Origin: Nitrospirota bacterium
GTDB lineage: Bacteria; Nitrospirota; UBA9217
Direction: 5' to 3'
NCBI GenBank assembly: GCA_963663225.1
Contig: OY760142.1
Coordinates: 608,001-672,000 of the forward strand
DNA length: 64,000 nt
The notes below the pieces were generated by a model. That model saw only the letters and a program-made list of their open reading frames with translations. It ran no database searches and was not told the origin of the DNA. Every line of letters starts with the position of its first letter. The stretch's first letter is position 1. The translations under genes were made by a program, and so were the position numbers. This document shows positions 1 through 61,332 of the stretch, piece by piece.

Positions 1-2627
1 GAGTAACCATCCGCATCAGGCCAGAGCGCATCAGTAAGCTCCGCTTCTGGAACGGCCCTGCCCCCGAATGCAATTAACGCTTTCAGCAATGCAATAGGTT
101 TCTGCTGGACTTTCCGGGAAAAAACAATTTTCTTTCCATCTTTTACAAGCTCAAATCTTCCCATCGTGTATATCCGGAGCGGATATGGCCAGTTGTCAAG
201 GAGCAACACATCCTTATCCGGAAGAAGCTTTCGCTTTTTGATAATATTCTGAACATACTCCACTTCGATTCCCGCCCCGAGCGCCTTTGCACAAAGAAAA
301 CTCATAACGGAGGGCCGCCACCATAACATGTTCATAAATCCGTTTTCACGTCCCAGTTTCATGGCGCTTTGCAAGGGTGCCAGCGCTTTCTGCTCATCTG
401 CACAGTTGAGTCTTACATAGGACTCCGAGACGAGGCACAGATACTTCATGAAGCTGCTTTTCATGTCATCGGCAATTTGGTGTGCATGAGCAAGATGATA
501 TTCGGCCTCCTCTGTTCTTCCCTGTTTGCTGAAAATTTCGTAAATCATGACGTGAGAAATCATTGTGAAGGGAATGTCGCCGACCAGCTCCGAAATATTT
601 CTTAACTCTTTACAATGCAGGTGTGCGGTAACGTTATCATCATCGAGCATGGCTTTCCAGATTTTTGCAAAATGATAGTAGCATCTATCGAGGCGCTCCT
701 TTCCCTCTGTGCCGGATTCCATTCTTTTGAATAATATGTCTGCGGTTGAGATGTCGCCGTTGCTCAGCGCAGCAGCAATACTGTACCCGATGACATGGGC
801 TTCCCAAACGTATACACCCAGTTTATCGGCCAGCTTGATCATTTCAAAAACCAAGTTCTGGCTGTTTTCACCGGCTACCGTAAAAATATCATGAATCGTT
901 TCCAGGCTTTTGAAAATGAGCATTACAAAATCAGGAGCGTTTGTAGAATGCATCGCATTTCGGAATAGGCTCAACGCAAAGCTTGCCTTGGTAAAATTAC
1001 CGTGGCGCAGGTAGTGCGCCACAAGATAGGAACCGGCTTTGCAATGTAGGACCGGGTTATAGTTGGTACGGAGAATATTCAAGGACCGATTTTCCCAGAT
1101 GCTGATGTCGGGATGGTGCGGCTGCCTGCGACAGAGGGCTCCAAACATGCTTATCGTTACCGACGCCTCAATTTCCCGGGAGGGAAACCTAGTATCCTTA
1201 GCAAGCATCCTATTAAGCAGTGAGATCATGTGATCCAAGGGACGGAAATCACTGCTGTAAAAAGCATCATCAACCGCACCGCCCCAGGCCGAAAACATCC
1301 CTGCACGATCATTCTGAGATTCGAACAGCTCAAATGCATGATCGAAATCCTTTTTGCTATCAACTGGATTGGACGTCATTGTACAAGCGCCGCGCCAGTA
1401 GAACAACCAGGGATAATTTTCGATTACCTCCCTGGGGAATTTATCTATCCAGCCCTTTACAACAAGGACCCGGCCCTGGGAAAACATGTCTTGCGCAAGT
1501 TTACAGATCAGTTTTGCCGCTTCTGAAAAATCTTCCGACTGAAGAAAAAGAATTACGGCATCTTCACTCTGGCTGTTCTCCGCAAGAACACGCGCTGCCT
1601 TTTGCTTAAGCGCTTTTATTTCGTCGTTCGGGCAGGTCTTCTCAAAATATGTCAGCAGGAATTCCCGGAACAGAGGATGATACTGGTACGCTTCTCCATG
1701 CATACCATACTTGTTTGTAAAAAAATGACGCTGGTGCATTTCAGCCAGGATCTGGCCGGCCTCTGCCATGCCGGTCAGATTGCAGGCCGCGTCGGCGGTT
1801 ATTCTGGGAAACAACGATGTTTTCGTGAGAAGCTGCCGCGTTTCATCCGGCAGCCCTTCAAACAGTTCTGTTGCGAAGTAGTTGAAAATCTCCTGCCTGC
1901 TAAAGCTTGCCGTCTTTTGAAGGATCGGTAATGCCCCGCTGCCTTTTTCAGTGATAAGAACCAGACCTGCAGCCCATCCGTCCGTTTTTTCATGCAATTG
2001 TTTTATTATTGCATGGCCGAGCTTTTTGTGAATACGTGAGTAAACGAATGTTTCGGTTTCTGCAAGCGTCAGTTTCATATCGTTCCAGCCGATGTAACTG
2101 ATCGCGTTGTTTGCGCGAAATCTTGTCAATGTCGCAGGAGGCTCATGGCGGCTGATGAAAATAATCCGCAGATTATCGGGAAGGACGGCCAGCCCATCGC
2201 AGATGATTTTGTGAAACAGGGAATCAGAGGGGATATGATGATAATTGTCGAAGACCAGTACTGAATGAGTTTTTAAGCTGCTATAGAGTTTCTCGAAAAA
2301 TCTTCGGGTGAAAACATTGATGCCGGGAAGATACACAGGTGTCAGAAGGGGCAACTGTTTCCGGCTTTTGGGATTGGCGTTCCGCGCAGCATGTCCCAGA
2401 TAGTAAAAAAACGTGGGAAGATCGGCGTCACCTTCGTCCAGCTGATACCAGAGGTACGGCAGTTTGCGTCTGCTCAGATAATCGGCAACCAGGGTCGTTT
2501 TTCCCGCCCCCCCGGGTCCGGCTATCCATGTAACAGGCTTCCTGCCGGCGGCATCGAGAAGAGAGTGAAGTCTCTTCCGCTGGATAACATCGATAACTTT
2601 TGGGCAAGTTATTTTTGATATCGGCAT
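1..2627 (-). CDS. MalT-like STAND ATPase / TPR / SARP-BTAD transcriptional regulator (3' end runs off the window)
   Basis: Absent from the ORF track because there is no stop in the window. I translated the ends by hand from ATG 2627: MPISKITCPKVIDVIQRKRL...WIAGPGGAGKTTLVADY...WYQLDEGDADLPTFFYYL (Walker A, MalT-type N-terminus). The window edge reads DNWPYPLRIYTMGRFELVKDGK...QQKPIALLKALIAFGG...DALWPDADG (SARP winged-helix start). The middle was not fully translated. Confidence 0.88.
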   Translation of the reverse strand, partial: MPISKITCPKVIDVIQRKRLHSLLDAAGRKPVTWIAGPGGAGKTTLVADYLSRRKLPYLWYQLDEGDADLPTFFYYLGHAARNANPKSRKQLPLLTPVYLPGINVFTRRFFEKLYSSLKTHSVLVFDNYHHIPSDSLFHKIICDGLAVLPDNLRIIFISRHEPPATLTRFRANNAISYIGWNDMKLTLAETETFVYSRIHKKLGHAIIKQLHEKTDGWAAGLVLITEKGSGALPILQKTASFSRQEIFNYFATELFEGLPDETRQLLTKTSLFPRITADAACNLTGMAEAGQILAEMHQRHFFTNKYGMHGEAYQYHPLFREFLLTYFEKTCPNDEIKALKQKAARVLAENSQSEDAVILFLQSEDFSEAAKLICKLAQDMFSQGRVLVVKGWIDKFPREVIENYPWLFYWRGACTMTSNPVDSKKDFDHAFELFESQNDRAGMFSAWGGAVDDAFYSSDFRPLDHMISLLNRMLAKDTRFPSREIEASVTISMFGALCRRQPHHPDISIWENRSLNILRTNYNPVLHCKAGSYLVAHYLRHGNFTKASFALSLFRNAMHSTNAPDFVMLIFKSLETIHDIFTVAGENSQNLVFEMIKLADKLGVYVWEAHVIGYSIAAALSNGDISTADILFKRMESGTEGKERLDRCYYHFAKIWKAMLDDDNVTAHLHCKELRNISELVGDIPFTMISHVMIYEIFSKQGRTEEAEYHLAHAHQIADDMKSSFMKYLCLVSESYVRLNCADEQKALAPLQSAMKLGRENGFMNMLWWRPSVMSFLCAKALGAGIEVEYVQNIIKKRKLLPDKDVLLLDNWPYPLRIYTMGRFELVKDGKKIVFSRKVQQKPIALLKALIAFGGRAVPEAELTDALWPDADGY

Positions 2628-3049
2628 ATTTGCATACAACTTAAGTTATGAAATAGTAACAATTACAAGGAGTGCTGTCAAATGAAATATTATGCAACAA
2701 ATAGGTGATTCAGATATGTCATCCTGCACACCTCTACTGTAATTTCAAAAAAATGTCATTTTTTTGTGAATATTCAGGAAGCAGCAGATGAACAGTTCCA
2801 TAACAGGTAAGTCTGTAGCTAATGCAGGATATACCGCTCAGCAATCCGTGCGGCAGTTGCCAGAGAAAGGAAAAGTAACGTATATAAATACGAACGTCAT
2901 TACTTGGTCTTTCTTGTCCACTTGCGGGGAAAATACTCGGAAGATCCAGACAGGAAGCCCGCTCTCGATTCAGAGAACGAATGCAAAAACCCGGCAGCTT
3001 CAGGTTTTTATCACTCCTTGAGCAAAGCATCCGATGTTCGACGAGGGAG

Positions 3050-3316
3050 TTACTTCAACTGACTGTCTTTACTGCCACTTCGATTGTACAAGGCAACCGT
3101 CTTCTGCCTTTTTTCGAGTTCTGACTGGCATTGGACACAATAACGGACTCCGGGCATCGCCTTCTGTCGCGCCTCAGGGATAACCGCCTCGCATTCTTCA
3201 CAGTGAGTCAGGCTTTCACCATCCGGCATCCGGCTTCTGGCTAACTGGACTGCCGACTCCACCGTGGCATCTATTTGTTCCTGCACCGCCCCATCGCGGG
3301 ACCAACCGACTGCCAT
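3050..3316 (-). CDS. DksA/TraR family C4-type zinc finger protein (YbiI-like)
   Basis: MAVGWSRDGAVQEQIDATV...CEEC...IPEARQKAMPGVRYCVQC...YNRSGSKDSQLK; start reassigned to ATG 3316. Confidence 0.92.
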   Translation of the reverse strand: MAVGWSRDGAVQEQIDATVESAVQLARSRMPDGESLTHCEECEAVIPEARQKAMPGVRYCVQCQSELEKRQKTVALYNRSGSKDSQLK

Positions 3317-3379
3317 GACAGACTCCCGTTGTTTCTGATAATTAATTATACGATTATTGGGGAAAAAATCAACCCGGGG

Positions 3380-3618
3380 CAATAATGTCCAAGAGAATCG
3401 AGTGGAGTCCCCTCCGGGAGGAGCCGGAGATCCCTCGATAGACACGACCTCCTGCTTGTACCCAGCGCTAACGAGTGCGATAGCGCAAGTGCAGGGTACG
3501 ACTTACTGCATCCCTCCCCCGACAAGAGTCGGGGGATTCCATGTCGCAGGGATTAAACAAACTAACCAGCTTACGAAAGTCATCATGTCTGTTTTACTGC
3601 TCTCTACCCGCCTATACG
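3380..3618 (-). mobile_element. Structured non-coding element, putative internally deleted IS110-family remnant (non-coding end RNA without recombinase)
   Basis: Three stem-loops (3397-3439, 3458-3499, 3510-3553), an orphan AGGAGG-GTG (3453-3443), and minus-strand motifs GTATAGGCGGGTAG / TAAGCTGGTTAG / AATCCCTG / ATGGAAT / GAGGGATGC that I recall from IS110 non-coding ends. Family assignment and boundaries are unverified. Confidence 0.45.
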
Positions 3619-16260: not shown

Positions 16261-16821
16261 ATGGTCGGTTGGATTCTACTTGCGGTGCTCGGTTTATTCT
16301 TGGTCTGGATCATCATGATTTACAACGGTCTGGTTACCCGGCGCAACGATGTCCAGAGCGCGTGGAAGCAAATCGATGTCCAGCTGAAGCGGAGGCACGA
16401 CCTCATTCCAAACCTGGTCGCAACCGTGAAAGGGGCGATGGAGTTCGAGCAGGACACTCTTGAAAAAGTCATTTCTGCGAGGGCGAAGGCTGTGTCGGCC
16501 CCGACACCAGCTGCAAAAGCGGAGGCCGAGAATATCCTGACGCAAACCCTTGGGAAACTTTTTGCCCTCATGGAAAATTATCCGGCCCTGAAAAGCAACC
16601 AAAACGTGATGCAATTGCAGGAGGAACTCACCTCCACGGAAAACAAGATATCTTTCGCCCGCCAGTTCTATAATGATCTGGTTGCGAACTACCGGACACG
16701 GATTCAAATATTCCCCAACAATATCGTTGCGTCAATGTTCAATTTTAACAGTGAAGAATATTTCGGCGCTGAGGAAGCGGACCGTGCCGTTCCCGCTGTC
16801 AATATAAGCCTGAAAAAGTGA
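16261..16821 (+). CDS. lemA: LemA family protein
   Basis: YNGLV, AWKQIDVQLKRRHDLIPNLV, ENYPALK, TENKISFARQFYN, FPNN. Confidence 0.95.
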   Translation: MVGWILLAVLGLFLVWIIMIYNGLVTRRNDVQSAWKQIDVQLKRRHDLIPNLVATVKGAMEFEQDTLEKVISARAKAVSAPTPAAKAEAENILTQTLGKLFALMENYPALKSNQNVMQLQEELTSTENKISFARQFYNDLVANYRTRIQIFPNNIVASMFNFNSEEYFGAEEADRAVPAVNISLKK

Positions 16822-19211: not shown

Positions 19212-19940
19212 TTAGTATGTATTCCATCCCGGTATTAAAATCGTCAGTTTGTCCATAATCAGCAGCACGCCCATGACAATCAGGACAACTCCGCTTATTA
19301 TTTTAATGACCTTGAAGTGTTTTCTGACGATGTTGAATGAAGTCAGAAACGTGCTGATGGCGATTGACGAAAGAATAAACGGAATACCGAGGCCCAGCGA
19401 GTAAAACGTCAACAGCACCATGCCTGTGCCCACCGTGCGCGTTTCCATGGCCAGCGCCAGTACCGACCCCAGAAACGGTCCGGTGCACGGGGTCCAGCCC
19501 GCGGCGAAAACCATCCCGATAACAAGCGTTCCCGCATATCCCGCAGGCCTTGTTTTCAGATGCAGCCTTGCTTCCTGCTGAAGGAAAGGGATCTTTACCA
19601 CGTCCATGACAAAGATACCCATGAGTATGACAAAAACTCCTCCTGCAATCCGGATGTTCTCCAGGTGCTGTGACAAAATGCCGCCCGCCATGCTTGCTGT
19701 TGCCCCTAAAAGCACGAATATTATCGTGAACCCTGCAACGAAAACACCGGTATGCAACAGTGAAATTCTCATGTTTCTGCCGCGTGAGCCGGGGCTCACC
19801 AGATCATCGTAGCCGATTCCCGTGATATAGGAAACATAGGAAGGGATCAGGGGAAGAATACAGGGGGACACAAAGGACGTGAGCCCCATAAAAAGAGAAA
19901 ACAGCAGCGTGTACAGTGTCAGTCCCTGTGCAGGGTCCAT
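19212..19940 (-). CDS. ccdA: Cytochrome c biogenesis protein CcdA
   Basis: SFVSPCILPLIP, GWTPCTGP, YSLGLGIPF; multiple TM segments. Confidence 0.93.
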   Translation of the reverse strand: MDPAQGLTLYTLLFSLFMGLTSFVSPCILPLIPSYVSYITGIGYDDLVSPGSRGRNMRISLLHTGVFVAGFTIIFVLLGATASMAGGILSQHLENIRIAGGVFVILMGIFVMDVVKIPFLQQEARLHLKTRPAGYAGTLVIGMVFAAGWTPCTGPFLGSVLALAMETRTVGTGMVLLTFYSLGLGIPFILSSIAISTFLTSFNIVRKHFKVIKIISGVVLIVMGVLLIMDKLTILIPGWNTY

Positions 19941-20102
19941 GGATGTCACCTTGTAAGTAATATAAAACATCATAACAAAGCATTTATAATCTATCAAGAT
20001 AAAGTTTTCTCATTTCTGTGTATGGTATGGAGGATTATTCTGTTGACAAAAACAGCCAATTTCATTAACGTTATGCATCTTCAATCAGGAGGATGCAGCT
20101 TC

Positions 20103-39763: not shown

Positions 39764-39770
39764 ACGGTCA

Positions 39771-39920
39771 CTTGTTCTCAGGGCGGGGTGAAATTCCCCA
39801 CCGGCGGTGTCCCGCGTTTCGGCGGGGAGCCCGCGAGCGCTCCTTCCATGCAGGAAGGAGGTCAGCAGATCTGGTGAAAAGCCAGAGCCGACGGTCACAG
39901 TCCGGATGAAAGAGGACAAG
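39771..39920 (+). ncRNA. FMN riboswitch (RFN element)
   Basis: CAGGGCGGGGTGAAATTCCCCACCGGCGGT...AGCCCGCGAGCG...AGCAGATCTGGTGAAAAGCCAGAGCCGACGGTCACAGTCCGGATGAAAGAG, upstream of ribB. Confidence 0.97.
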
Positions 39921-40033
39921 GCGGTTGCCTGTCACAGACGGCATGCCTTGCACACGGTTGCCCTCACGCGTGGGGGAAACTGCCTGCCCTTCGCCCTGGT
40001 TCTGGTACATAATACTACAACAGGAGGATTACC

Positions 40034-40741
40034 ATGAATCAGAATCTGCTTGCGCAATTCGGAGATGCCGAACAACGCGTACAGAAAGCCTTGGACTCAC
40101 TTCGTAAAGGCAGCGGCGTGCTGGTCGTTGACGATGAACAGCGCGAAAATGAAGGCGATTTGATTTTTGCCGCCGAGTTTCTTACCAAACCCCAGATGGC
40201 CATGATGATCCGCGAATGCAGCGGCATCGTATGCCTCTGCCTGCCGGGAGAAAAAGTGCGGTCACTTGCCCTGCCCATGATGGTGAGCAATAATTCCAGC
40301 CGCTATCAAACGGCATTCACGGTTTCCATCGAAGCAGCCCGGGGAGTCACAACCGGCGTATCGGCAGCCGACCGTGTTACAACAATTCGAACAGCCATTG
40401 CCGACAACGCGCAGCCGGGTGACCTTAACCGGCCGGGTCATATATTCCCGCTCAGCGCCAGACCCGGCGGGGTCCTCGAACGCCCCGGCCATACGGAAGC
40501 AACCGTAGACCTGATGCGTCTTGCCGGATTGAAACCATACGGGGTGCTCTGCGAGCTCACAAACCCGGATGGCAGCATGGCCCGTCTGCCGGAAATCGTT
40601 AGCTTCGCCAAAAAGCACTCCATGGCCCTGCTCTCCGTGGAAGATTTGATAACCTACCGCCGCACGCAGGACGTGGTGCCAGTCTGTTCACTCACCCAAA
40701 ACGCATCGGCTCGCAATTTCAACCACGAGGACATAGGGTGA
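40034..40741 (+). CDS. ribB: 3,4-dihydroxy-2-butanone-4-phosphate synthase
   Basis: [47 protein letters not shown]. Confidence 0.96.
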
Positions 40742-53576: not shown

Positions 53577-54428
53577 TTACACGCTGATTCTGAAGCCGGC
53601 ATAACCAGGCTTCACCATTTCCCCGAGTGAAGCGCGCAGCGATTCCACGGCCGTGTCTCCGGTGCAATGGCAGGGCACGACTACATTCATATTCAATGTT
53701 CTCAGTACTGCGTTTGTTTTCGCCAGACGTTCCGCGGAAGAACTTCTAAGATGCAAACCGCCGATAATAGCTGCAATAGTCGATTCACCCGACGCATTAC
53801 GGACAGCGGCAATGGTATTAATAATGCCGGAGTGGCTGCAGCCGGAAATGATGATGAGCCCTTGGGGGGTCTTCATCCACAGGGCCTGGTCGTCATCAAT
53901 AAGGTCGCGAGTCCGGGCTTCAGCGTCCAGAAAAAACGGCCCGCCGGTGTCCTCAAAATCTGTTTTTCTCGGAATGGGGCCGGTCAGGCCGATACCCGGC
54001 GCGACAAACACCGGCTGCGTCGTTACGTGCAGCCGGTCTGATGGCACTCCCGCCAGGGCGGCTTGCGCATCCTGCGGCATGTGGACTGCTTTGGCTTTGT
54101 CTGGCGACGGAATACTGTAACGCAGTATCCCTGCGGCCGGATGAACATAAACGTGTGCTTTTGCATTTTTCCTGAGGATATGGGAAATTCCACCGGAGTG
54201 GTCGTAATGGCCGTGGCTCAATATAACTGCATCGGCATCTTCAAGCCGGATACCGAGTTTTTCTGCGTTATGAGCCAGGGCTTTTTCATGACCGGTATCG
54301 AAAAGGATGCGACTGCCCCCCATCTCGATCCAGAGGGAAAACCCGTGTTCTGTGATCAGGCCTTCACCGGCTTTGTCATCCACCAGTACGGTAATCGTTG
54401 CAGTAGCGTCCATTTCATCATGCCGCAA
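53577..54428 (-). CDS. MBL-fold metallo-hydrolase
   Basis: EHGFSLWIE, ILFDTG, LSHGHYDHSGG, DDQAL, SGCSHSG, IGGLH, PCHCTG. Confidence 0.9.
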   Translation of the reverse strand: MRHDEMDATATITVLVDDKAGEGLITEHGFSLWIEMGGSRILFDTGHEKALAHNAEKLGIRLEDADAVILSHGHYDHSGGISHILRKNAKAHVYVHPAAGILRYSIPSPDKAKAVHMPQDAQAALAGVPSDRLHVTTQPVFVAPGIGLTGPIPRKTDFEDTGGPFFLDAEARTRDLIDDDQALWMKTPQGLIIISGCSHSGIINTIAAVRNASGESTIAAIIGGLHLRSSSAERLAKTNAVLRTLNMNVVVPCHCTGDTAVESLRASLGEMVKPGYAGFRISV

Positions 54429-54809
54429 TTAATGCGCGCACCCTCCGCCATGACTGTGTCCGCCACAGCACTGGGAAAGCGTCAACTCGGCAAGCGTCCC
54501 GTTCCGGAACATCTCGATATTCTGCCGCACCGTGCCGCCCTGGGAGCGGTATACTTTCAGCCCCATTCTATTCAAGCCGTTCAGCGCGCCTGCGCCGATG
54601 CCGCCCACGACAATCGCATCCACCTGCCGGTTGTCGAGCGCTTTCATCGGGCTGCACATGCCGTGCGCATGGTGCTGGTCGCGGTTGTTTATTACGTCGA
54701 CCGTGTTTGCATCGATGTCGACAACCAGAAACATCGGCGCTGAACCAAAGTGGTTGTACACCGTGCTGTCCATCCCTTCTTCATTTTGTACCGGAAAACA
54801 AATCTTCAT
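54429..54809 (-). CDS. NifB/NifX family Mo-Fe cluster-binding protein
   Basis: MKICFP, HFGSAPMF, VVGGIGAGA; His/Cys-rich tail CCGGHSHGGGCAH. Confidence 0.9.
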   Translation of the reverse strand: MKICFPVQNEEGMDSTVYNHFGSAPMFLVVDIDANTVDVINNRDQHHAHGMCSPMKALDNRQVDAIVVGGIGAGALNGLNRMGLKVYRSQGGTVRQNIEMFRNGTLAELTLSQCCGGHSHGGGCAH

Positions 54810-54838
54810 ACTAAATCTCCTTTTTTAATGAAATATTA

Positions 54839-55114
54839 TTACTCAAACACAATCGCCCCGCCCTGCGTCAGGGCCATGGCAACTTTTTTTCTCGCCGCGG
54901 CAAGGATTCTTTGAACGGTCCCGCGTGATACACCCATACGAACGCCTGCTTCCTCCTGGGTCAGCCCATCAAGATCACAAAGCTTCAAGGACTCGAGTTC
55001 ATCCCGGGAAAGGGTAATCCGCATAACCTCACTCATCGGGATACCGGTAGGCTTGAACGCTTTACCGCGGAATTGACATCCGCAGAATCTCGGTTTTTTA
55101 CATCGAGGAGACAC
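54839..55114 (-). CDS. DUF134 DNA-binding protein
   Basis: PRCKKPRFC...FKPTG...ELESLKLCDLDGLTQEEAGVRMGVSRGT..ARKKVA; GTG start. Confidence 0.92.
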   Translation of the reverse strand: MSPRCKKPRFCGCQFRGKAFKPTGIPMSEVMRITLSRDELESLKLCDLDGLTQEEAGVRMGVSRGTVQRILAAARKKVAMALTQGGAIVFE

Positions 55115-55133
55115 TACACCACCCCCAGCATTC

Positions 55134-55178
55134 TGTGCATATGCACAAAATGATACTCGAAACATCTCATGTTGTCAA
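55134..55178 (-). promoter_or_regulatory. Promoter plus palindromic operator of the DUF134 operon
   Basis: TTGACA-17-TATCAT followed by the perfect palindrome TGTGCATATGCACA (55134-47). Confidence 0.75.
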
Positions 55179-55229
55179 TATCTTTTTGTCGAAACACGAC
55201 GCCTAGCATTACAGTCCTGATAAGCGAAT

Positions 55230-55263
55230 AACACAAAGGCGCCATGTGGCGCCTTTGTGTTTT
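55230..55263. terminator. Intrinsic terminator closing the YeeE operon
   Basis: ACACAAAGGCGCCA-TG-TGGCGCCTTTGTGT. Confidence 0.8.
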
Positions 55264-55306
55264 CTAAATCAGTCGGTTTTCTTAGAGATAACGAAGATAT
55301 CTGTAA

Positions 55307-55408
55307 TTACTTTGCTCCACCTTGTCGTGGGTCCCCACGGTAGCCCAAAGCTTTCCAATCAAGCCGCCCTTTCGCACCGTGGCAATCATTGCACTTGGGC
55401 GCAACCAT
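55307..55408 (-). CDS. 33-aa CxxCH micro-ORF (possible remnant of an octaheme cytochrome c C-terminus)
   Basis: GAGGGAGG RBS, then MVAPKCNDCHGAKGRLDWKALGYRGDPRQGGAK*; not in the ORF track. Confidence 0.6.
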   Translation of the reverse strand: MVAPKCNDCHGAKGRLDWKALGYRGDPRQGGAK

Positions 55409-55471
55409 GCGTGCCTCCCTCTGTGAATTGACTTCTGTATATGTCAGCTCGCATTCACACGGAATTTATAC

Positions 55472-55933
55472 TTATCTCCGCCTCCAACCGCTCCAGACAG
55501 GATAACCGTTTTCATCTCGAAGTTTTAACACTTCCTCTCCTTTCTTTATCTCTGCCGCAATAAGAGCGGGACTGCCATTGAAAACAATCCTTGAACCTTT
55601 GGCTTCAATTTTGTCGTTTACGTTTATTTTGACATCCTGATTTTCAAGATACCATGTCGGCCCGAGATGAACGGATATATTTCCTTTGGCGGTTTTCAAA
55701 AGAACATGCATACCATGCGACATTCCCCGCATCGGAGCGATTAGGTCCACTGTTACTACTTCTCCGCTGACAACTTCAACGGTCTTGGGATCATACATCC
55801 GCCCGTATTGGGAGCCCATGCCCCATCCGCCGCTTCCTTTCCACATCATGCCGGGTTGAGCAAAAGATTCCATCGCCAACAAAGGGCACAAGAGAAGCGC
55901 AAACAAAAGTAGTATGATTCTAACTTTTCTCAT
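55472..55933 (-). CDS. Secreted OB-fold-like protein
   Basis: Signal peptide; GWGMGSQYGRMYDPKTVE..SGEV, VHLGPTWYL, GSRI, LRDENGYPVW; AAGGAG RBS. Confidence 0.75.
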   Translation of the reverse strand: MRKVRIILLLFALLLCPLLAMESFAQPGMMWKGSGGWGMGSQYGRMYDPKTVEVVSGEVVTVDLIAPMRGMSHGMHVLLKTAKGNISVHLGPTWYLENQDVKINVNDKIEAKGSRIVFNGSPALIAAEIKKGEEVLKLRDENGYPVWSGWRRR

Positions 55934-55967
55934 ACGCACTCCTTTATTCATAATTGTGTGTAGAACA

Positions 55968-56495
55968 TCAGAGGCCTTTTTTCTCAAACCATCGGAAAAG
56001 CAGCAATGTTCCGACTGTGAAAACGACGATCACCACCCAGTGATTGACGCCAAGCATCTGCGGGACGGTAATCTTCCCGAAGACTCCCCATGTCAGCACG
56101 GTTTCTTTTAACGCAGGATACGCCTCTGCAAAGATGGCAGCACCGGTCAACATGCCCAGAATGCCCCAGACCGCATCCCATCTTCCTTCCCCAAGAGCCC
56201 CCATCTGGGTGCCGGGACAATATCCGAGCACGCCCCACCCAAGCCCGAAGATAAGTCCTCCCAGCACCTGAGCTCCGATGATGGTCGGCTTGATCTGCAA
56301 TTTCACAATCCCAAAGTCCTTCAGAAGATAAACGCCGATCATGGCGACAAGAATGCTCGAAAGCATGAATTTGACAATGGTCATATCCATCAGCCGCAGC
56401 GCGCCGACCTGCTTGTCATATCTGATCACTCTGCCTTTCTGGAGCAGAAATCCGAACATAATGCCGGTCACCAGTCCCAAGAGAAGTATGTTCAT
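55968..56495 (-). CDS. YeeE/YedE sulfur-transport family subunit B
   Basis: GIMFGFLLQKG, GGLIFGLGWGVLGYCPGT; ATGA overlap with the upstream subunit. Confidence 0.9.
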   Translation of the reverse strand: MNILLLGLVTGIMFGFLLQKGRVIRYDKQVGALRLMDMTIVKFMLSSILVAMIGVYLLKDFGIVKLQIKPTIIGAQVLGGLIFGLGWGVLGYCPGTQMGALGEGRWDAVWGILGMLTGAAIFAEAYPALKETVLTWGVFGKITVPQMLGVNHWVVIVVFTVGTLLLFRWFEKKGL

Positions 56496-57016
56496 CGCCG
56501 GTCACCCCCTCCGTACAGAATGCGCGCCATAACAATTCCGCCTACAAAAAAACAAACCAAGGCAATAAATCCGCTCACCGCAAGCTGAAGCGAACCGCTC
56601 AGCCCATGGCCGCTCGGTCAGCCATCAGCCAGACGGGCGCCGAACATCGCCACGGCGCCTCCGAGAAACGCCGCAGCCGCCCGCTTTGGCACACTCGGGC
56701 CGAAACGTTCCATCCACATGTCAGGCACGGCTTTCCATTGGAAACTCCGTGATGCAAAAGCCGCAATCAAGGCACCAATAAATATTCCGACTACAAACAT
56801 CCATTGCCAGTCTATTTTCGGCACCTCTTTGATAAAATACGCCATGGACGCCACGCGTTCTGACGCCACGGTCTGCTCGATCATTCCGGCTGTTTTCACA
56901 AACGTTGTTGATGCTCCGAGAAACTTGTCCGCCGTAAGAACGGCAAACAGCGACACGAGCCCGCTCAATGCGCCTGCCACATACGGGTTCCATCCTGCAT
57001 CTTGTTCAGATTTCAT
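56492..57016 (-). CDS. YeeE/YedE sulfur-transport family subunit A, probable selenoprotein (U133)
   Basis: WNPYVAG...FGARLADG-(TGA 56620-56618)-PSGHGLSGSLQLAVSGFIALVCFFVGG...GGDRR*; hairpin GCTGAGCG-GTT-CGCTTCAGC after the UGA. Confidence 0.88.
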
Positions 57017-57278
57017 TCCGGCCTCCTTTCAAGAAGTAATTTGTATATGCGATTTTATGCAACTATGTAATAAGGGTAGCAAGGAGACTGCGGTCTGTCA
57101 AGAAAACGGGAAAAAATTTGCCGTATTTTATAAATGATGATTCATCGAACTTAAGGAATATATCGCTTTGAGAATACCAGTTGGGGAAATGGCTGGCTCT
57201 GCGGAGAATCTGCGGACTTCACAGTTGTGTGGCAACCGATCCTGCGATCCGAAGATATGGTGAATTTTTTGGTGTCGG

Positions 57279-59285
57279 TTATTCTACTTTTACTCCAATC
57301 GCCATCTCCTGCTGACGCAGAGATCGGATCTTGTCGCGCAGTTCTGCCGCTGTTTCAAAATCCAGCTCCTTTGCAGCAGCCCGCATCTGTTTTTCGAGCG
57401 AGGCAATCAGGGCGGGGATGTTCACCGTGGAGATATACTCTCCGGCATCCTCAGCGGCCAGAGGAACGGTGAAGTAATCTTGCTCGTACACAGTGCGCAG
57501 TGTTGCTTGTATGTTTTTCTTTATGGATTGCGGCGTAATATTGTGTTTCTTGTTGTATTCTTCCTGCATCATGCGGCGTCTGTTTGTCTCAGCAACCGCG
57601 GCGCGCATGGAATCTGTGGTGGTATCGGCGTAGAGTATCACCCGGCCATTTACATTTCTTGCCGCTCGCCCCATGGTCTGAATGAGTGAGCGGGTGGAGC
57701 GCAGAAATCCTTCCTTGTCCGCATCCAGAATCGCGACCAGGGACACTTCGGGAATGTCGAGGCCCTCCCGCAGAAGGTTGATGCCGACCAGTACATCATA
57801 CTTGCCGAGACGCAGGTCTCGAATAATGTCGACACGCTCAAGCGTGTCGATGTCTGAATGGAGATAGGCCACTTTTACATTCAATTCCTTGTAATGCTCC
57901 GTCAGGTCCTCCGCCATGCGTTTTGTCAACGTAGTGACAAGCACCCGTTCCCGCGCCTCTGCGCGCGCCCGGATTTCGTTGAGCAAATCATCCACCTGAC
58001 CCTGCACCGGGCGGATGACGATCTGCGGATCGGTCAGGCCTGTGGGACGGATCACCTGTTCAATGATCCTGGTGCCGCTCTTCTCCACTTCGAAATCTGC
58101 CGGCGTTGCGGAGACATAAACGGTCTGATGCACCCGCTCTTCAAACTCCTGAAAATTGAGCGGGCGGTTGTCGAGCGCCGAGGGCAGGCGAAAACCATAG
58201 TCCACCAGGGTGGTTTTCCGTGCGCGATCGCCGTTGTACATGCCGCCGATCTGGGGAATGGTGGCATGAGACTCGTCCACAAACAGCAGATAGCCTTTTG
58301 GGAAGTAATCAAGCAGTGTGGGCGGCGGTTCTCCCGGCGCCCTGCCTGAAAGATGGCGCGAATAATTTTCTATGCCGTGGCAGTAGCCCATCTCCTGGAT
58401 CATCTCAAGGTCGAACATCGTCCTCTGCTCGATCCGCTGAGCTTCGAGCAGCTTGTTCATTTTCCGAAAGTACTGGAGACGTTCCCTCAGTTCGTCATGG
58501 ATGCCGTCGACGGCGGCCTTCATCCGCGTTTCCGGGATCACATAATGGCTGTTCGGATACACCGCGATTTTATCCAGTTTCCGGATCGCCGTTCCCAGGA
58601 GCGGATCGAACACGGCAATCGAATCGATTTCGTCACCGAACATCTCGATGCGGACCGCCGTGTTTTCGTACGACGCGGGGAAAATTTCGACCACGTCGCC
58701 GCGCACCCGGAACGTCCCTCGCTGAAAATCAAAATCGTTCCGCTCATACTGGATGTCGACGAGCTTTCGCAGCATCTCGTTTCGTTCAATGCGCTGGCCC
58801 TGTTCCAGAAAAAGCAGCATGCCGTGGTAGGCCTCGGGCGATCCCAGGCCGTAAATGCAGGAAACAGAAGCAACGATGATCACATCGCGCCGTTCGAAGA
58901 GCGCAGTGGTGGCAGCGTGGCGCATGCGGTCAATCTGCTCGTTGATGGAGGAATCTTTTTCAATGTACGTGTCCGTGGTCGGCAGGTATGCTTCGGGCTG
59001 GTAGTAATCGTAATAGGAGACAAAATATTCAACAGCATTCTCCGGAAACAACTCTTTAAATTCATTGTAGAGCTGGGCAGCAAGCGTTTTGTTGTGCGCA
59101 ATGACCAGCGCCGGTTTCTGTATTTTCTCCACCACGTTCGCTATAGTGAAGGTTTTTCCGGAGCCGGTGACCCCCAACAGAACCTGGTGCGGCAGTCCTT
59201 TACTGATGCCTTCGGCCAGTTTATCGATGGCCTGGGGTTGATCGCCGGTCGGCTTAAAATCAGATACAATTTTGAACGGAGGCAT
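57279..59285 (-). CDS. uvrB: Excinuclease ABC subunit B
   Basis: [49 protein letters not shown]-terminal UVR domain. Confidence 0.98.
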
Positions 59286-59452: not shown

Positions 59453-60361
59453 TCATGTGCTTTTTTTCTTTCCACCCGCGCACAGGAGAATATTCAAAAA
59501 TTCACGGCAGAGATGAGAGTGGGTTTTCTTCTTTAACAGAATAGCGTGAAAGTGGCGTTCAAGCGGCACACCCTTGATCCGGACCGCTGCAATGCGGCCC
59601 GCTTCCCTGTCATCACGAAGCGCCCGGATGGAAAGGATGGAGATGCCGATCCCCGCCTTCACAGACTGGCGTACTGCGTCATTGTTCCCGGCGACTGCAA
59701 CAACATTCAGATCGCTGATGCAAAACCCCGCCTTCTCCAGCCGCTCTTCCGTAATACGCCGGGTGCCGGACCCTCTTTCGCGCAGCACAAATGGTTCCCC
59801 GGCCAGGGCCGCAACCGGGACACTTCTCTTCCGCGCCCAGGGATGGCGGGGAGAAACGGCCAGTACCAGTTCGTCTGTAAACAGCGCATGAACTTCCAAA
59901 CGCGGATCAGCAGGACGTGCACCTACAACGCCGATGTGCACATCATTCGTCAGAACGGATTCCGTCACGCTTGCCGTGTCCCCTATTTCCAGATGTAGTG
60001 TTGCGTTTGGATATTTTGCTTTGAACGCGCTGATATACACGGGAAGGACGTATGACCCCGGAATGGTGCTGGCGCCAATTCGTAACATTCCCGTAACGTT
60101 CCCGGAGAGCCCTCTGATCTCCTCCCGGATGTGGTCGCGAAGCGCGAGAAGCTCTTGTCCTGAGCGAAGCAAAATTTCCCCTGCTTCCGTCGGAATGACC
60201 CGTTTTCCGATGCGGTCCAGAAGTTTTACACCGAGCTCCGCCTCCAGGTTTTTAATGTGACCGCTCACCGTTGGCTGGGTAAGATACAGCGCTTCCGCTG
60301 CCCTGGAGAAGCTGCGGAATTTCATGAGAGAACAGAATATTTCGATATGATGTAAATCCAT
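59453..60361 (-). CDS. LysR family regulator, CysL-like / selenium-metabolism-associated type (copy 2)
   Basis: MDLHHIEIF...SFSRAAEALYLTQPTVSGHIKNLE, IGASTIPG, RERGSGTR. Confidence 0.88.
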   Translation of the reverse strand: MDLHHIEIFCSLMKFRSFSRAAEALYLTQPTVSGHIKNLEAELGVKLLDRIGKRVIPTEAGEILLRSGQELLALRDHIREEIRGLSGNVTGMLRIGASTIPGSYVLPVYISAFKAKYPNATLHLEIGDTASVTESVLTNDVHIGVVGARPADPRLEVHALFTDELVLAVSPRHPWARKRSVPVAALAGEPFVLRERGSGTRRITEERLEKAGFCISDLNVVAVAGNNDAVRQSVKAGIGISILSIRALRDDREAGRIAAVRIKGVPLERHFHAILLKKKTHSHLCREFLNILLCAGGKKKST

Positions 60362-60435
60362 AGAAAAGGCGGGCCATCCGCGCGGTAAAAAATCCGCGGC
60401 CTGCCCGGTTTTTGCACCAGCAGGTTTCCGGCTGT

Positions 60436-61332
60436 TCAAGGGACTTTATGTTCGAACAGTTTTTCAAGAAAAGCACGGCAAAGAGGCAAACGGCTTTTCC
60501 CCTTGAGCAAAACGATGAAAAAATTACTTACCAGGGGAAGCTCCTTGATCCGTACTGCCGCCAGATGATTTGTGGCGATATCATTCTGAATCGCCCTGAG
60601 AGAAAGAACTGCGATGCCGAGTCCGGCCTTCACCGCCTGACGGACCGCATCGCTATTGCCTGCTATAACGACCGGATTCAGCTCCGCAAAAGACATTCCT
60701 GCCTCTTCAAGCCGCTCTTCCATAACATGGCGGGAACCCGGTCCTTTTTCGCGCACGATCAGCGGTTCATCCGCCAGTTCTTCCACCGTGACGGTTTTTC
60801 TTTTCACCCATGCATGATCTGCAGGAACGGCAACCACAAGTTCGTCCTGCAGGAACGGGTGGATCTCCAGGCGAGGATCGGTAGAGCGCAAGCCCACAAC
60901 GCCGATGTGCAGATCGCCGGCCAGCACAGACTCGGTCACCCGCGCGCTATTGCCGATTTCAAGGCGAATGAACGCTGACGGATGCTCCTGCTTGAACATT
61001 TTGATAACGGAAGGAAGAACATATCCTCCGGGAATGGAACTTGCGCCGATTCTCAGGCTGCCGGTGACATTTCCGAGAACACCTTCGATTTCCTGCCGGG
61101 TCTGGTCGCGGAGTGTGAGAAACTTCTGTCCGGCACGGTACAACACATCACCTGCTTCCGTGGGGACCACCCGTTTGCCGATCCGGTCGATAAGTTGCAC
61201 TCCGAGTTCGGTCTCGAGGTTTTTGATATGACCGCTCACGGTCGGCTGGGAAAGCCGTAGCATCTTCGCGGCTTTGGAAAAACTGCGGAGTTTTACGAGA
61301 TAATAGAATATTTCGATGTGATGTAAATCCAT
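60436..61332 (-). CDS. LysR family regulator, CysL-like / selenium-metabolism-associated type (copy 1)
   Basis: MDLHHIEIF...SQPTVSGHIKNLE, IGASSIPG, REKGPGSR. Confidence 0.88.
   Translation of the reverse strand: MDLHHIEIFYYLVKLRSFSKAAKMLRLSQPTVSGHIKNLETELGVQLIDRIGKRVVPTEAGDVLYRAGQKFLTLRDQTRQEIEGVLGNVTGSLRIGASSIPGGYVLPSVIKMFKQEHPSAFIRLEIGNSARVTESVLAGDLHIGVVGLRSTDPRLEIHPFLQDELVVAVPADHAWVKRKTVTVEELADEPLIVREKGPGSRHVMEERLEEAGMSFAELNPVVIAGNSDAVRQAVKAGLGIAVLSLRAIQNDIATNHLAAVRIKELPLVSNFFIVLLKGKSRLPLCRAFLEKLFEHKVP

Follow-up and report, generated by a model that had tools for sequence, protein, structure and literature searches.

A split YeeE/YedE-type transporter gene pair with a predicted selenocysteine at the substrate-binding cysteine position

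Introduction

Does an in-frame TGA codon close a short gene, or does it encode selenocysteine (Sec) within a longer one? This question is raised by two adjacent minus-strand genes in a 64-kb stretch of DNA from one genome, that of a Nitrospirota bacterium (contig OY760142.1; the whole analysed stretch is referred to below as the window). The first gene is called as a 132-residue protein that ends at the TGA, and the second, its partner, begins where the frame of the first gene would close if the TGA were read through. Both genes resemble parts of the YeeE/YedE transporters, in which the position of a single cysteine is of particular consequence. In the single-chain transporter YeeE, Cys293 is described as lying in a periplasmic indentation, where it contacts bound thiosulfate at position I, and as the outermost of three cysteines spaced about 7 Å along a proposed path; the C91A and C293A mutants are reported as inactive, whereas C22A still complements (PMC7449682). 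A natural replacement of cysteine by Sec on the thiosulfate-contacting residue would be a ready probe of the role of this cysteine, and would bear on whether the conserved cysteines of the YeeE family only guide the anion or react with it.

Our comparative analysis indicates that the first gene is almost certainly a genuine selenoprotein gene, in which the TGA encodes Sec at the substrate-binding cysteine position. Taking the explanation as a whole, we consider it very likely that the two genes form an operon for a heterodimeric YeeE/YedE-type transporter whose first subunit is a selenoprotein.

Results

An open frame continues past the TGA and runs into the partner gene

The features of the gene pair in the window are as follows.

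56492..57016, minus strand: gene for the predicted Sec-containing subunit, 174 amino acids plus stop; like the C-terminal half of YeeE/YedE and PmpA/YedE1-like in position
56618..56620, minus strand: TGA within the frame, taken to encode selenocysteine U133 (motif ADG-U-PSGHG) in view of cysteine in homologues and recurrence in other genomes
56492..56495, minus strand: ATGA overlap of the Sec gene stop and the partner start, present in the sequence and again in related loci
55968..56495, minus strand: gene for the partner subunit, 175 amino acids; like the N-terminal half of YeeE/YedE, with DUF6691 and with Cys93 in GYCPGT
57022..57026, minus strand: Shine-Dalgarno GGAGG, read directly and placed 5 nt before the start codon (ATG 57016-57014)
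57017..57278, minus strand: intergenic stretch between uvrB and the Sec gene, presumed from the sequence alone to hold the promoter

The open reading frame (ORF) at 57016..56618 on the minus strand encodes 132 residues, ends in ...FGARLADG and is closed in the ORF list by the TGA at 56620-56618. Past this codon the frame begins PSGHGLSGSLQLAVSG and 41 codons stay open until the TGA at 56494-56492, such that, with the first TGA written as U, the full read-through continuation of the subunit is PSGHGLSGSLQLAVSGFIALVCFFVGGIVMARILYGGGDRR. The closing TGA shares three bases with the ATG at 56495-56493 of the partner ORF (56495..55968), and this ATGA overlap implies that translation of the two genes is coupled. 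In addition, an internal GGAGG lies 11 nt upstream of the partner start, within the codons for a conserved YGGG tail. Upstream of the Sec gene, a TTGACA hexamer is visible near 57095, although a consensus promoter scan of 57017..57278 called no minus-strand promoter, and a promoter and terminator scan of 55200-57400 gave counts not above those of shuffled sequence and, on the minus strand, nothing useful ahead of the gene.

TGA otherwise serves as a stop codon in this organism. Among the 43 window genes that have a stop and could be assigned to a family, the closing codon is TAA in 21, TGA in 16 and TAG in 6. Since so many of these genes end in TGA, and since homologues of the Sec subunit have cysteine, rather than tryptophan or glycine, opposite the in-frame codon, TGA is not generally reassigned. 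The protein database stores the window's own product as 132 residues, together with a second 132-residue protein from another contig that is 91% identical to it.

The TGA falls on the conserved transport cysteine of a transporter split in two

The two products match complementary halves of the same family. The Sec subunit scores 85.5 bits against PF04143 (Sulf_transp; cutoff 27) over profile positions 174-309 of 310, and the partner scores 50.1 bits against the same cutoff over positions 18-149, with a further match to DUF6691 (PF20398) at 30.1 bits. Because the first gene matches the C-terminal half of the profile and the second gene the N-terminal half, the pair constitutes a YeeE/YedE transporter divided into two parts, in which the gene for the C-terminal half comes first. 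Models for more narrowly defined members of the superfamily scored far below their cutoffs, both for TsuA (NF052577, 53.3 versus 400 bits; NF041049, 38.8 versus 645 bits) and for the selenium-linked YedE proteins (NF033796, 28.7 versus 350 bits with the Sec subunit; TIGR04112, 35.3 versus 200 bits with the partner). On these scores, the pair is best classed as belonging to the superfamily while being orthologous to neither TsuA nor the selenium-linked YedE type.

A search for homologues of the Sec subunit returned 6074 proteins, the full-length ones being 172-178 residues long and 63-83% identical to it. When 26 rows were aligned, cysteine stood opposite the TGA in every one of the 23 full-length homologues; two truncated 132-residue rows, which are the window's own database record and the 91% identical protein from another contig, end at the TGA position, and the segment FGARLADG-C-PSGHG is nearly invariant together with the 25 residues that follow. 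Relative to a protein of known structure, Spirochaeta thermophila YeeE (6LEO), the Sec subunit aligns to residues 237-328 (E = 1.1e-5) with U133 on Cys293, and the partner aligns to residues 4-116 (E = 1.9e-6) with Cys93 on Cys91 and Ile24 on Cys22. The partner Cys93 is encoded by the TGT at 56219-56217 within the motif LGYCPGT.

An earlier reading of this locus, made from the sequence without database searches (the sequence-only reading), had proposed most of this picture, and these results bear it out: the ORF that stops after ...ARLADG and its 41 further codons, the ATGA overlap with the next subunit, the cysteine kept by the partner in GYCPGT, a split YeeE/YedE transporter, the placement of the TGA at the conserved transport cysteine, and the expectation that annotation pipelines would call the gene truncated are all as it described.

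The in-frame TGA recurs in many genomes

To survey other genomes, a degenerate DNA pattern for A-D-G-TGA-P-S-G-H-G was scanned against one genome per species, and at least 120 loci matched. Among the matches listed, to which the counts below also refer, 115 of 120 loci have the TGA within the frame that encodes this protein; the remaining five (L052, L077, L080, L096 and L097) are chance matches of the pattern in unrelated frames and are left out of all later counts. By the phylum labels in the record titles, where several of the Myxococcota and Pseudomonadota are records titled Deltaproteobacteria or Proteobacteria bacterium, the 115 loci come from Thermodesulfobacteriota (72), Synergistota (9), Nitrospirota (7), Myxococcota (7), Bacillota (5), Pseudomonadota (3) and Acidobacteriota (1), with 11 unplaced. 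They include the named isolates Malonomonas rubra DSM 5091, Syntrophorhabdus aromaticivorans UI and Hydrosulfovibrio ferrireducens CB1MN.

In these loci, about 40 codons after the TGA are open and conserved, except in four that are ended by a contig edge and in one further locus described below. Conservation downstream of the TGA in relatives, which the sequence-only reading had named beforehand as its own test, is thus very high, and the reading is not refuted. Where the 3′ end is present, the read-through frame closes with a TGA in 104 of 111 loci and with the ATGA overlap in 96 of them. A tblastn match to the partner was obtained in 111 loci; in 110 of these the partner follows downstream of the Sec gene on the same strand, and the position of its Cys93 is cysteine in all 73 loci that span it. 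The position equivalent to Cys22 of YeeE is leucine in 60 and isoleucine in 51 of the 111 matched loci and cysteine in none. Of the two central positions of the pair, the predicted Sec is therefore restricted to one.

The divergent locus (L070, contig CAWASK010000008.1 of an uncultured delta proteobacterium) has a Sec gene that lacks the usual stop, and its frame runs 233 codons onward. A fusion of the two domains was considered for this locus and rejected, as ORF1 crosses the partner out of frame; it reflects either genuine loss of the stop codon or an assembly error.

A covarying hairpin follows the TGA

Immediately 3′ of the TGA the window contains a candidate bacterial Sec insertion sequence (SECIS).

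56583..56604, minus strand: SECIS-like hairpin with a 9-bp core, one bulged U and the apical loop GUU at 56595-56593

The hairpin reads GCUGAGCG-GUU-CGCUUCAGC, with a core stem that pairs 56604-56596 with 56592-56583, and starts about 13 nt past the UGA. Folding with ViennaRNA gives 10-11 pairs with one bulged U, including two or three weaker outer pairs that reach 56581-56606. The loop and its 22-nt spacing from the UGA, both put forward by the sequence-only reading, are present as it described them. The bacterial SECIS model given in PMC13188914 specifies a loop of 3-9 nt with G in the first two loop positions, a spacing of 16-37 nt and an energy of -7.5 kcal/mol or lower, and the window hairpin, with its GUU loop, its spacing and an energy of -11.8 kcal/mol over a 33-nt stretch, falls within every one of these limits.

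Comparison across loci indicates that this structure is maintained. We aligned the 63 nt from the TGA without gaps for 112 loci and the window (113 rows, 110 of them distinct), three true loci being too short to include. In the nine-pair structure, 90.4% of cells are paired, as compared with 25.5-49.3% after a shift of the 3′ arm by one to three columns, and none of 500 column shuffles gave a covariation score as high as that observed. Pair 18-37 occurs as all four Watson-Crick types (GC 71, AU 14, UA 8, CG 6), with GU in 3 and no pairing in 8, and pair 19-36 is CG in 82 and UA in 23. In pair 18-37, the third base of a glycine codon is matched with the first base of a leucine, isoleucine or valine codon seven codons on, so keeping this pair sometimes costs an amino-acid substitution. 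About a quarter of the sequences keep the outer register and have a variant loop of six bases, GGUCUG, and RNAalifold recovered only the five outer pairs.

Because the encoded peptide is itself conserved, each sequence was also compared with 200 synonymous versions drawn from the codon usage of its own gene. A full register, defined as the five outer pairs and at least three inner pairs, is found in 98 of the 110 distinct native sequences and in 912 of 22000 recodings (4.2%). The codon for Ser140 is AGC in 109 of the 110 sequences. Across the family the mean folding energy is -11.9 kcal/mol for native sequences versus -8.3 kcal/mol for recoded ones (median z = -1.46), and the register count is far more discriminating than the energy.

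Sec and Cys forms are interspersed on the tree

A FastTree phylogeny built from 73 complete Sec and 118 Cys forms, with L070 and truncated rows left out, requires at least 22 changes between the Sec and Cys states, of which at least 4 are forced by well-supported branches; the Cys forms in this tree come from the homologue search with the window protein and are hence biased towards its relatives. The window and a 91% identical relative (L001) fall inside a supported clade of 12 that otherwise holds 10 Cys forms. As the tree is unrooted, gains and losses of Sec are not distinguishable in these counts.

Selenium context and neighbouring genes

Upstream of the pair, with only uvrB between them and the operon, are two overlapping tandem genes for LysR-type regulators.

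59453-60439, minus strand: LysR gene, 295.6 bits against NF040786 (cutoff 250)
60436-61332, minus strand: LysR gene, 275.4 bits against NF040786 (cutoff 250)

NF040786 is named 'selenium metabolism-associated LysR family transcriptional regulator', and the two genes are indirect support for a selenium-using genome. A tblastn comparison found these LysR genes within about 2 kb of the Sec-YeeE pair in none of 114 other loci.

A mechanical scan of the window for a second selenoprotein gene yielded 116 ORF pairs joined by a TGA, of which nearly all are spurious. Four of these pairs, which lie next to real genes, were translated through their TGA and compared with Pfam. No family was matched by three of them, and in the fourth the match, to VitK2_biosynth, was limited to the part upstream of the TGA. 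A second selenoprotein gene is present beside the pair in another genome. In a Synergistales metagenome-assembled genome (L004), an AhpC/Prx peroxiredoxin gene at 900-1532 on the plus strand lies directly upstream of the Sec-YeeE gene and has a TGA at its peroxidatic cysteine (FTFV-U-ATE), and it too is called as truncated. The same TGA-bearing peroxiredoxin is likely encoded at 1119-1532 of a Synergistota metagenome-assembled genome (L005).

Among 126 nearest-neighbour ORFs from 67 loci, Pfam comparison revealed no recurrent partner and no TusA or YeeD. Occasional neighbours were a rhodanese, a sulfur oxygenase reductase, an MBL-rhodanese fusion, an Mrp/ParA ATPase and a C_GCAxxG_C_C protein. 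The Sec-YeeE pair behaves as a self-contained cassette. The neighbours in the window (a MamS/MamX-like ORF, DUF134, NifX-like and MBL proteins, UvrB and the two LysR regulators) recur only in the close relative L001 or sporadically.

The MamS/MamX-like ORF (55472-55933, minus strand) starts 35 nt past the partner gene and encodes a 153-residue protein with a signal-peptide-like N-terminus, and it may be co-transcribed with the pair. It has no match in the Pfam copy searched, an NCBIfam match to MamS at E = 7e-4 and ESM Atlas features at 0.97 to MamS/MamX-domain clusters (PF26390), and it recurs only in L001. Farther downstream of the operon, 53577-55165 on the minus strand encodes DUF134, a protein with a NifX/NifB-type FeMo-cofactor-binding domain and an MBL-fold hydrolase, and 16261-16821 on the plus strand gives a partial match to MamQ (NF040966; E = 3.6e-25, 88.7 bits versus a cutoff of 250). 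The MamQ-like and MamS/MamX-like ORFs and the DUF134/NifX/MBL run hint that the organism is a Nitrospirota relative of magnetotactic lineages. Elsewhere in the window, an FMN riboswitch (RF00050, 113.4 bits) at 39770-39921 on the plus strand precedes a ribB-type 3,4-dihydroxy-2-butanone-4-phosphate synthase gene at 40034-40741, and a DsbD/CcdA-type membrane protein (PF02683) encoded at 19212-19997 on the minus strand gives a partial match to the selenoprotein TsoB model (62.9 bits versus 805).

Discussion

Our analysis points to a two-gene operon in which the first gene is read through its TGA. In the mechanism that we favor, ribosomes translating ORF1 would reach UGA133, and the downstream hairpin would act as a bacterial SECIS that recruits SelB with Sec-tRNA(Sec), such that Sec is inserted and translation runs 41 codons further. 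Termination at the UGA that overlaps the partner AUG would then couple the synthesis of both halves, with the partner also served by its own GGAGG. The homology of the two products to the two halves of one chain, the coupling of their genes and published work on PmpAB and YedE1E2 together lead us to infer a heterodimer, and the halves would assemble into the pseudo-symmetric hourglass fold of single-chain YeeE/TsuA. In such a complex Sec133 would sit at the outer, periplasm-facing constriction in the place of Cys293, and the partner Cys93 would lie one step inward in the place of Cys91, while the third, cytoplasm-side cysteine (Cys22) would be absent, its position being isoleucine in the window and leucine or isoleucine in relatives. 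The complex most likely imports reduced or sulfane-type inorganic sulfur, such as thiosulfate or polysulfide, with the selenolate acting as the predicted first contact that hands the substrate to Cys93. If this is correct, the 132-residue call is an annotation error and the true product has 174 residues, including the essential binding-site loop. The same miscalling probably affects Sec-YeeE genes in well over a hundred species.

Several observations weigh against this explanation. With regard to the genome, selA, selB and selD are absent among the 59 window ORFs scanned, no tRNA gene was found in the 64 kb, and the window yielded no other selenoprotein gene. With regard to the hairpin, the full register is lacking in 12 of the 110 Sec-form sequences; the energy of the window hairpin is unexceptional (z = -1.1 versus dinucleotide shuffles), with 7.5% of its own synonymous recodings folding as stably; and only 38 of the 110 sequences fold more stably than 95% of their recodings. 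Rfam returned no match, either for the whole window at the gathering threshold or for 56450-56720 at E <= 10, though this silence says little because no general bacterial SECIS model in Rfam matched. In addition, one of three distant plasmid Cys-form genes, a comparison of few and distant sequences, allows a hairpin of the same register to be drawn after its TGC, and some of the pairing may therefore follow from the peptide that is encoded. No Cys-form paralogue was found in the fetched loci. The way in which the GLSGSLQL peptide is encoded may already provide Cys forms with a SECIS-like hairpin, in which case a single-base change from TGC to TGA would suffice for a working selenoprotein gene. 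With regard to function, the scores of both subunits lie far under the TsuA cutoffs, and no YeeD or TusA adjoins the pair in the 67 scanned loci.

The simplest competing account of the TGA is that it is a true stop, created by a nonsense mutation or a sequencing error or found in a decaying gene, with only the 132-residue fragment made. Gene callers do end the gene there, the database holds the two 132-residue proteins noted above, and the window lacks Sec machinery. This account must then explain why the same codon is TGA in 115 listed genomes from several phyla, why it is followed by some 40 conserved open codons that mostly end in ATGA, and why the intervening hairpin is conserved and covaries. 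The fragment would moreover lack the loop equivalent to that of Cys293 and the last helix, and thus a residue described as essential in YeeE (PMC7449682), and we regard a true stop as highly improbable. The UGA could instead be decoded through the same hairpin as cysteine. Transfer RNAs that resemble selC but are charged with cysteine have been reported for some bacteria, and such a tRNA is compatible with both the TGA and the hairpin, with nothing speaking for it specifically. The two selenium-associated LysR regulators in the window argue for Sec, as does the peroxiredoxin of L004, which has TGA at its peroxidatic cysteine as well and fits the usual picture of a Sec-using genome, and PMC13188914 lists the family among the selenoprotein families. 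Decoding as cysteine is, in our judgment, more improbable still than a true stop.

A further possibility accepts Sec at position 133 and differs in the substrate. Here the pair would be a dedicated transporter for selenium compounds under the neighboring LysR regulators, with selenide or selenotrisulfide handled by its Sec residue. The subunits do match selenium-linked YedE models weakly (NF033796, E = 7e-7; TIGR04112, E = 7e-9 with the partner), the two LysR_Sec_metab genes lie 2.4 kb upstream with no gene but uvrB intervening, and YedE proteins are described as co-occurring with selenophosphate synthetase (PMC9312934). Those same models are missed by a wide margin, however, and TsuA-type models score better; the regulators adjoin the pair in no other locus; and neighbors elsewhere are heterogeneous and at times sulfur genes. 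A yedE deletion in Methanococcus maripaludis is described as having no clear selenium-transport phenotype (PMC11097638). We therefore hold a dedicated selenium transporter to be unlikely, although any choice among thiosulfate, sulfane sulfur and a selenium compound is putative. The sequence-only reading had proposed a heterodimeric transporter of thiosulfate or selenium compounds. Its pairing of a Sec half with a Cys half stands, while its substrates gain little from models whose cutoffs, for TsuA and selenium-linked YedE alike, are far from reached. With the TsuA cutoffs missed and no adjacent YeeD or TusA, uptake of thiosulfate in the manner of TsuA is not supported.

Returning to a Sec-bearing importer of inorganic sulfur, the Sec residue may also say something about chemistry. 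A selenolate is deprotonated at physiological pH and therefore cannot donate the S-H...S hydrogen bond proposed for Cys293. Together with the at least 22 changes between Sec and Cys at the Cys293-type site, and with Sec never occurring at the partner cysteine, this raises the tentative idea, which we think possible but rather doubtful, that the chalcogen at the outer site is a nucleophile and not a hydrogen-bond donor, and that sulfane sulfur or selenium might be relayed covalently through an Se-S and then an S-S linkage. If true, this would make the process group translocation rather than simple transport.

Comparison with known systems

YeeE/YedE proteins that contain Sec have been noted bioinformatically, as the sequence-only reading had stated. 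They are listed in PMC13188914 as PF04143 proteins with the motif GUxSG and one Sec (example WP_012471001.1), and also in PMC9312934; one of these two reviews describes several transporter subunits as predicted to contain Sec. The window protein shares with the listed family its Pfam assignment, the motif (DG-U-PSG in the window) and a single Sec in place of a conserved cysteine. The main text of PMC2398784 and PMC5029168, the primary papers cited for the family, contains no mention of YeeE/YedE, COG2391 or like terms, and in the open-access literature we found no further analysis, structural mapping or test of the Sec-YeeE form. The selenoprotein family, the split architecture and the roles of the two cysteines are thus already in print, and the window gene is a mis-called member of this family.

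Relative to single-chain YeeE/TsuA (S. thermophila and Escherichia coli; 6LEO, 6LEP, 8J4C and 8K1R), the window pair has by sequence the same fold family, and Cys293 and Cys91 both have counterparts in it. YeeE/TsuA is a chain of about 330-350 residues with a central linking helix and the third cysteine, Cys22, whereas the window transporter is split and lacks Cys22. YeeE/TsuA is also described as requiring an adjacent YeeD/TsuB (PMC11073785), and no YeeD or TusA lies beside the window pair or in the 67 loci.

The closest architecture is that of PmpA/PmpB from Serratia sp. ATCC 39006 and YedE1/YedE2 from Cupriavidus pinatubonensis and Sinorhizobium meliloti. As in the window, the halves are encoded by adjacent genes, the C-terminal half carries the Cys293 equivalent and the N-terminal half the Cys91 equivalent, and no Cys22 equivalent is present. 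PmpA and PmpB are proposed to form a heterodimer of a Cys293 half and a Cys91 half (PMC11582611), and YedE1E2 is described as an importer of zero-valent sulfur that needs both subunits and loses uptake with either C104S or C101S (PMC10812762). The sequence-only reading had known of no functional work on the split form, and in this it was mistaken, as these reports describe Cys/Cys versions and assay one of them. Searching plasmids by tblastn (E <= 1e-3) gave two matches at 31-33% identity, one of them on a Cupriavidus campinensis plasmid (L121, NZ_CP043439.1). This plasmid carries, at 20-898 and 2486-3612, both a short (144 + 144 residues) and a long (175 + 199 residues) split YeeE/DUF6691 pair; the long pair lies behind a rhodanese gene, and its Cys form can draw the same-register hairpin after TGC. 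Only the long pair was matched, which suggests that the window pair belongs to a distinct subgroup with longer subunits. In sum, the subunits of PmpAB and YedE1E2 have about 130-145 residues, four helices and a Cys/Cys arrangement, whereas those of the window have 174 and 175 residues, with a predicted Sec at the Cys293 position.

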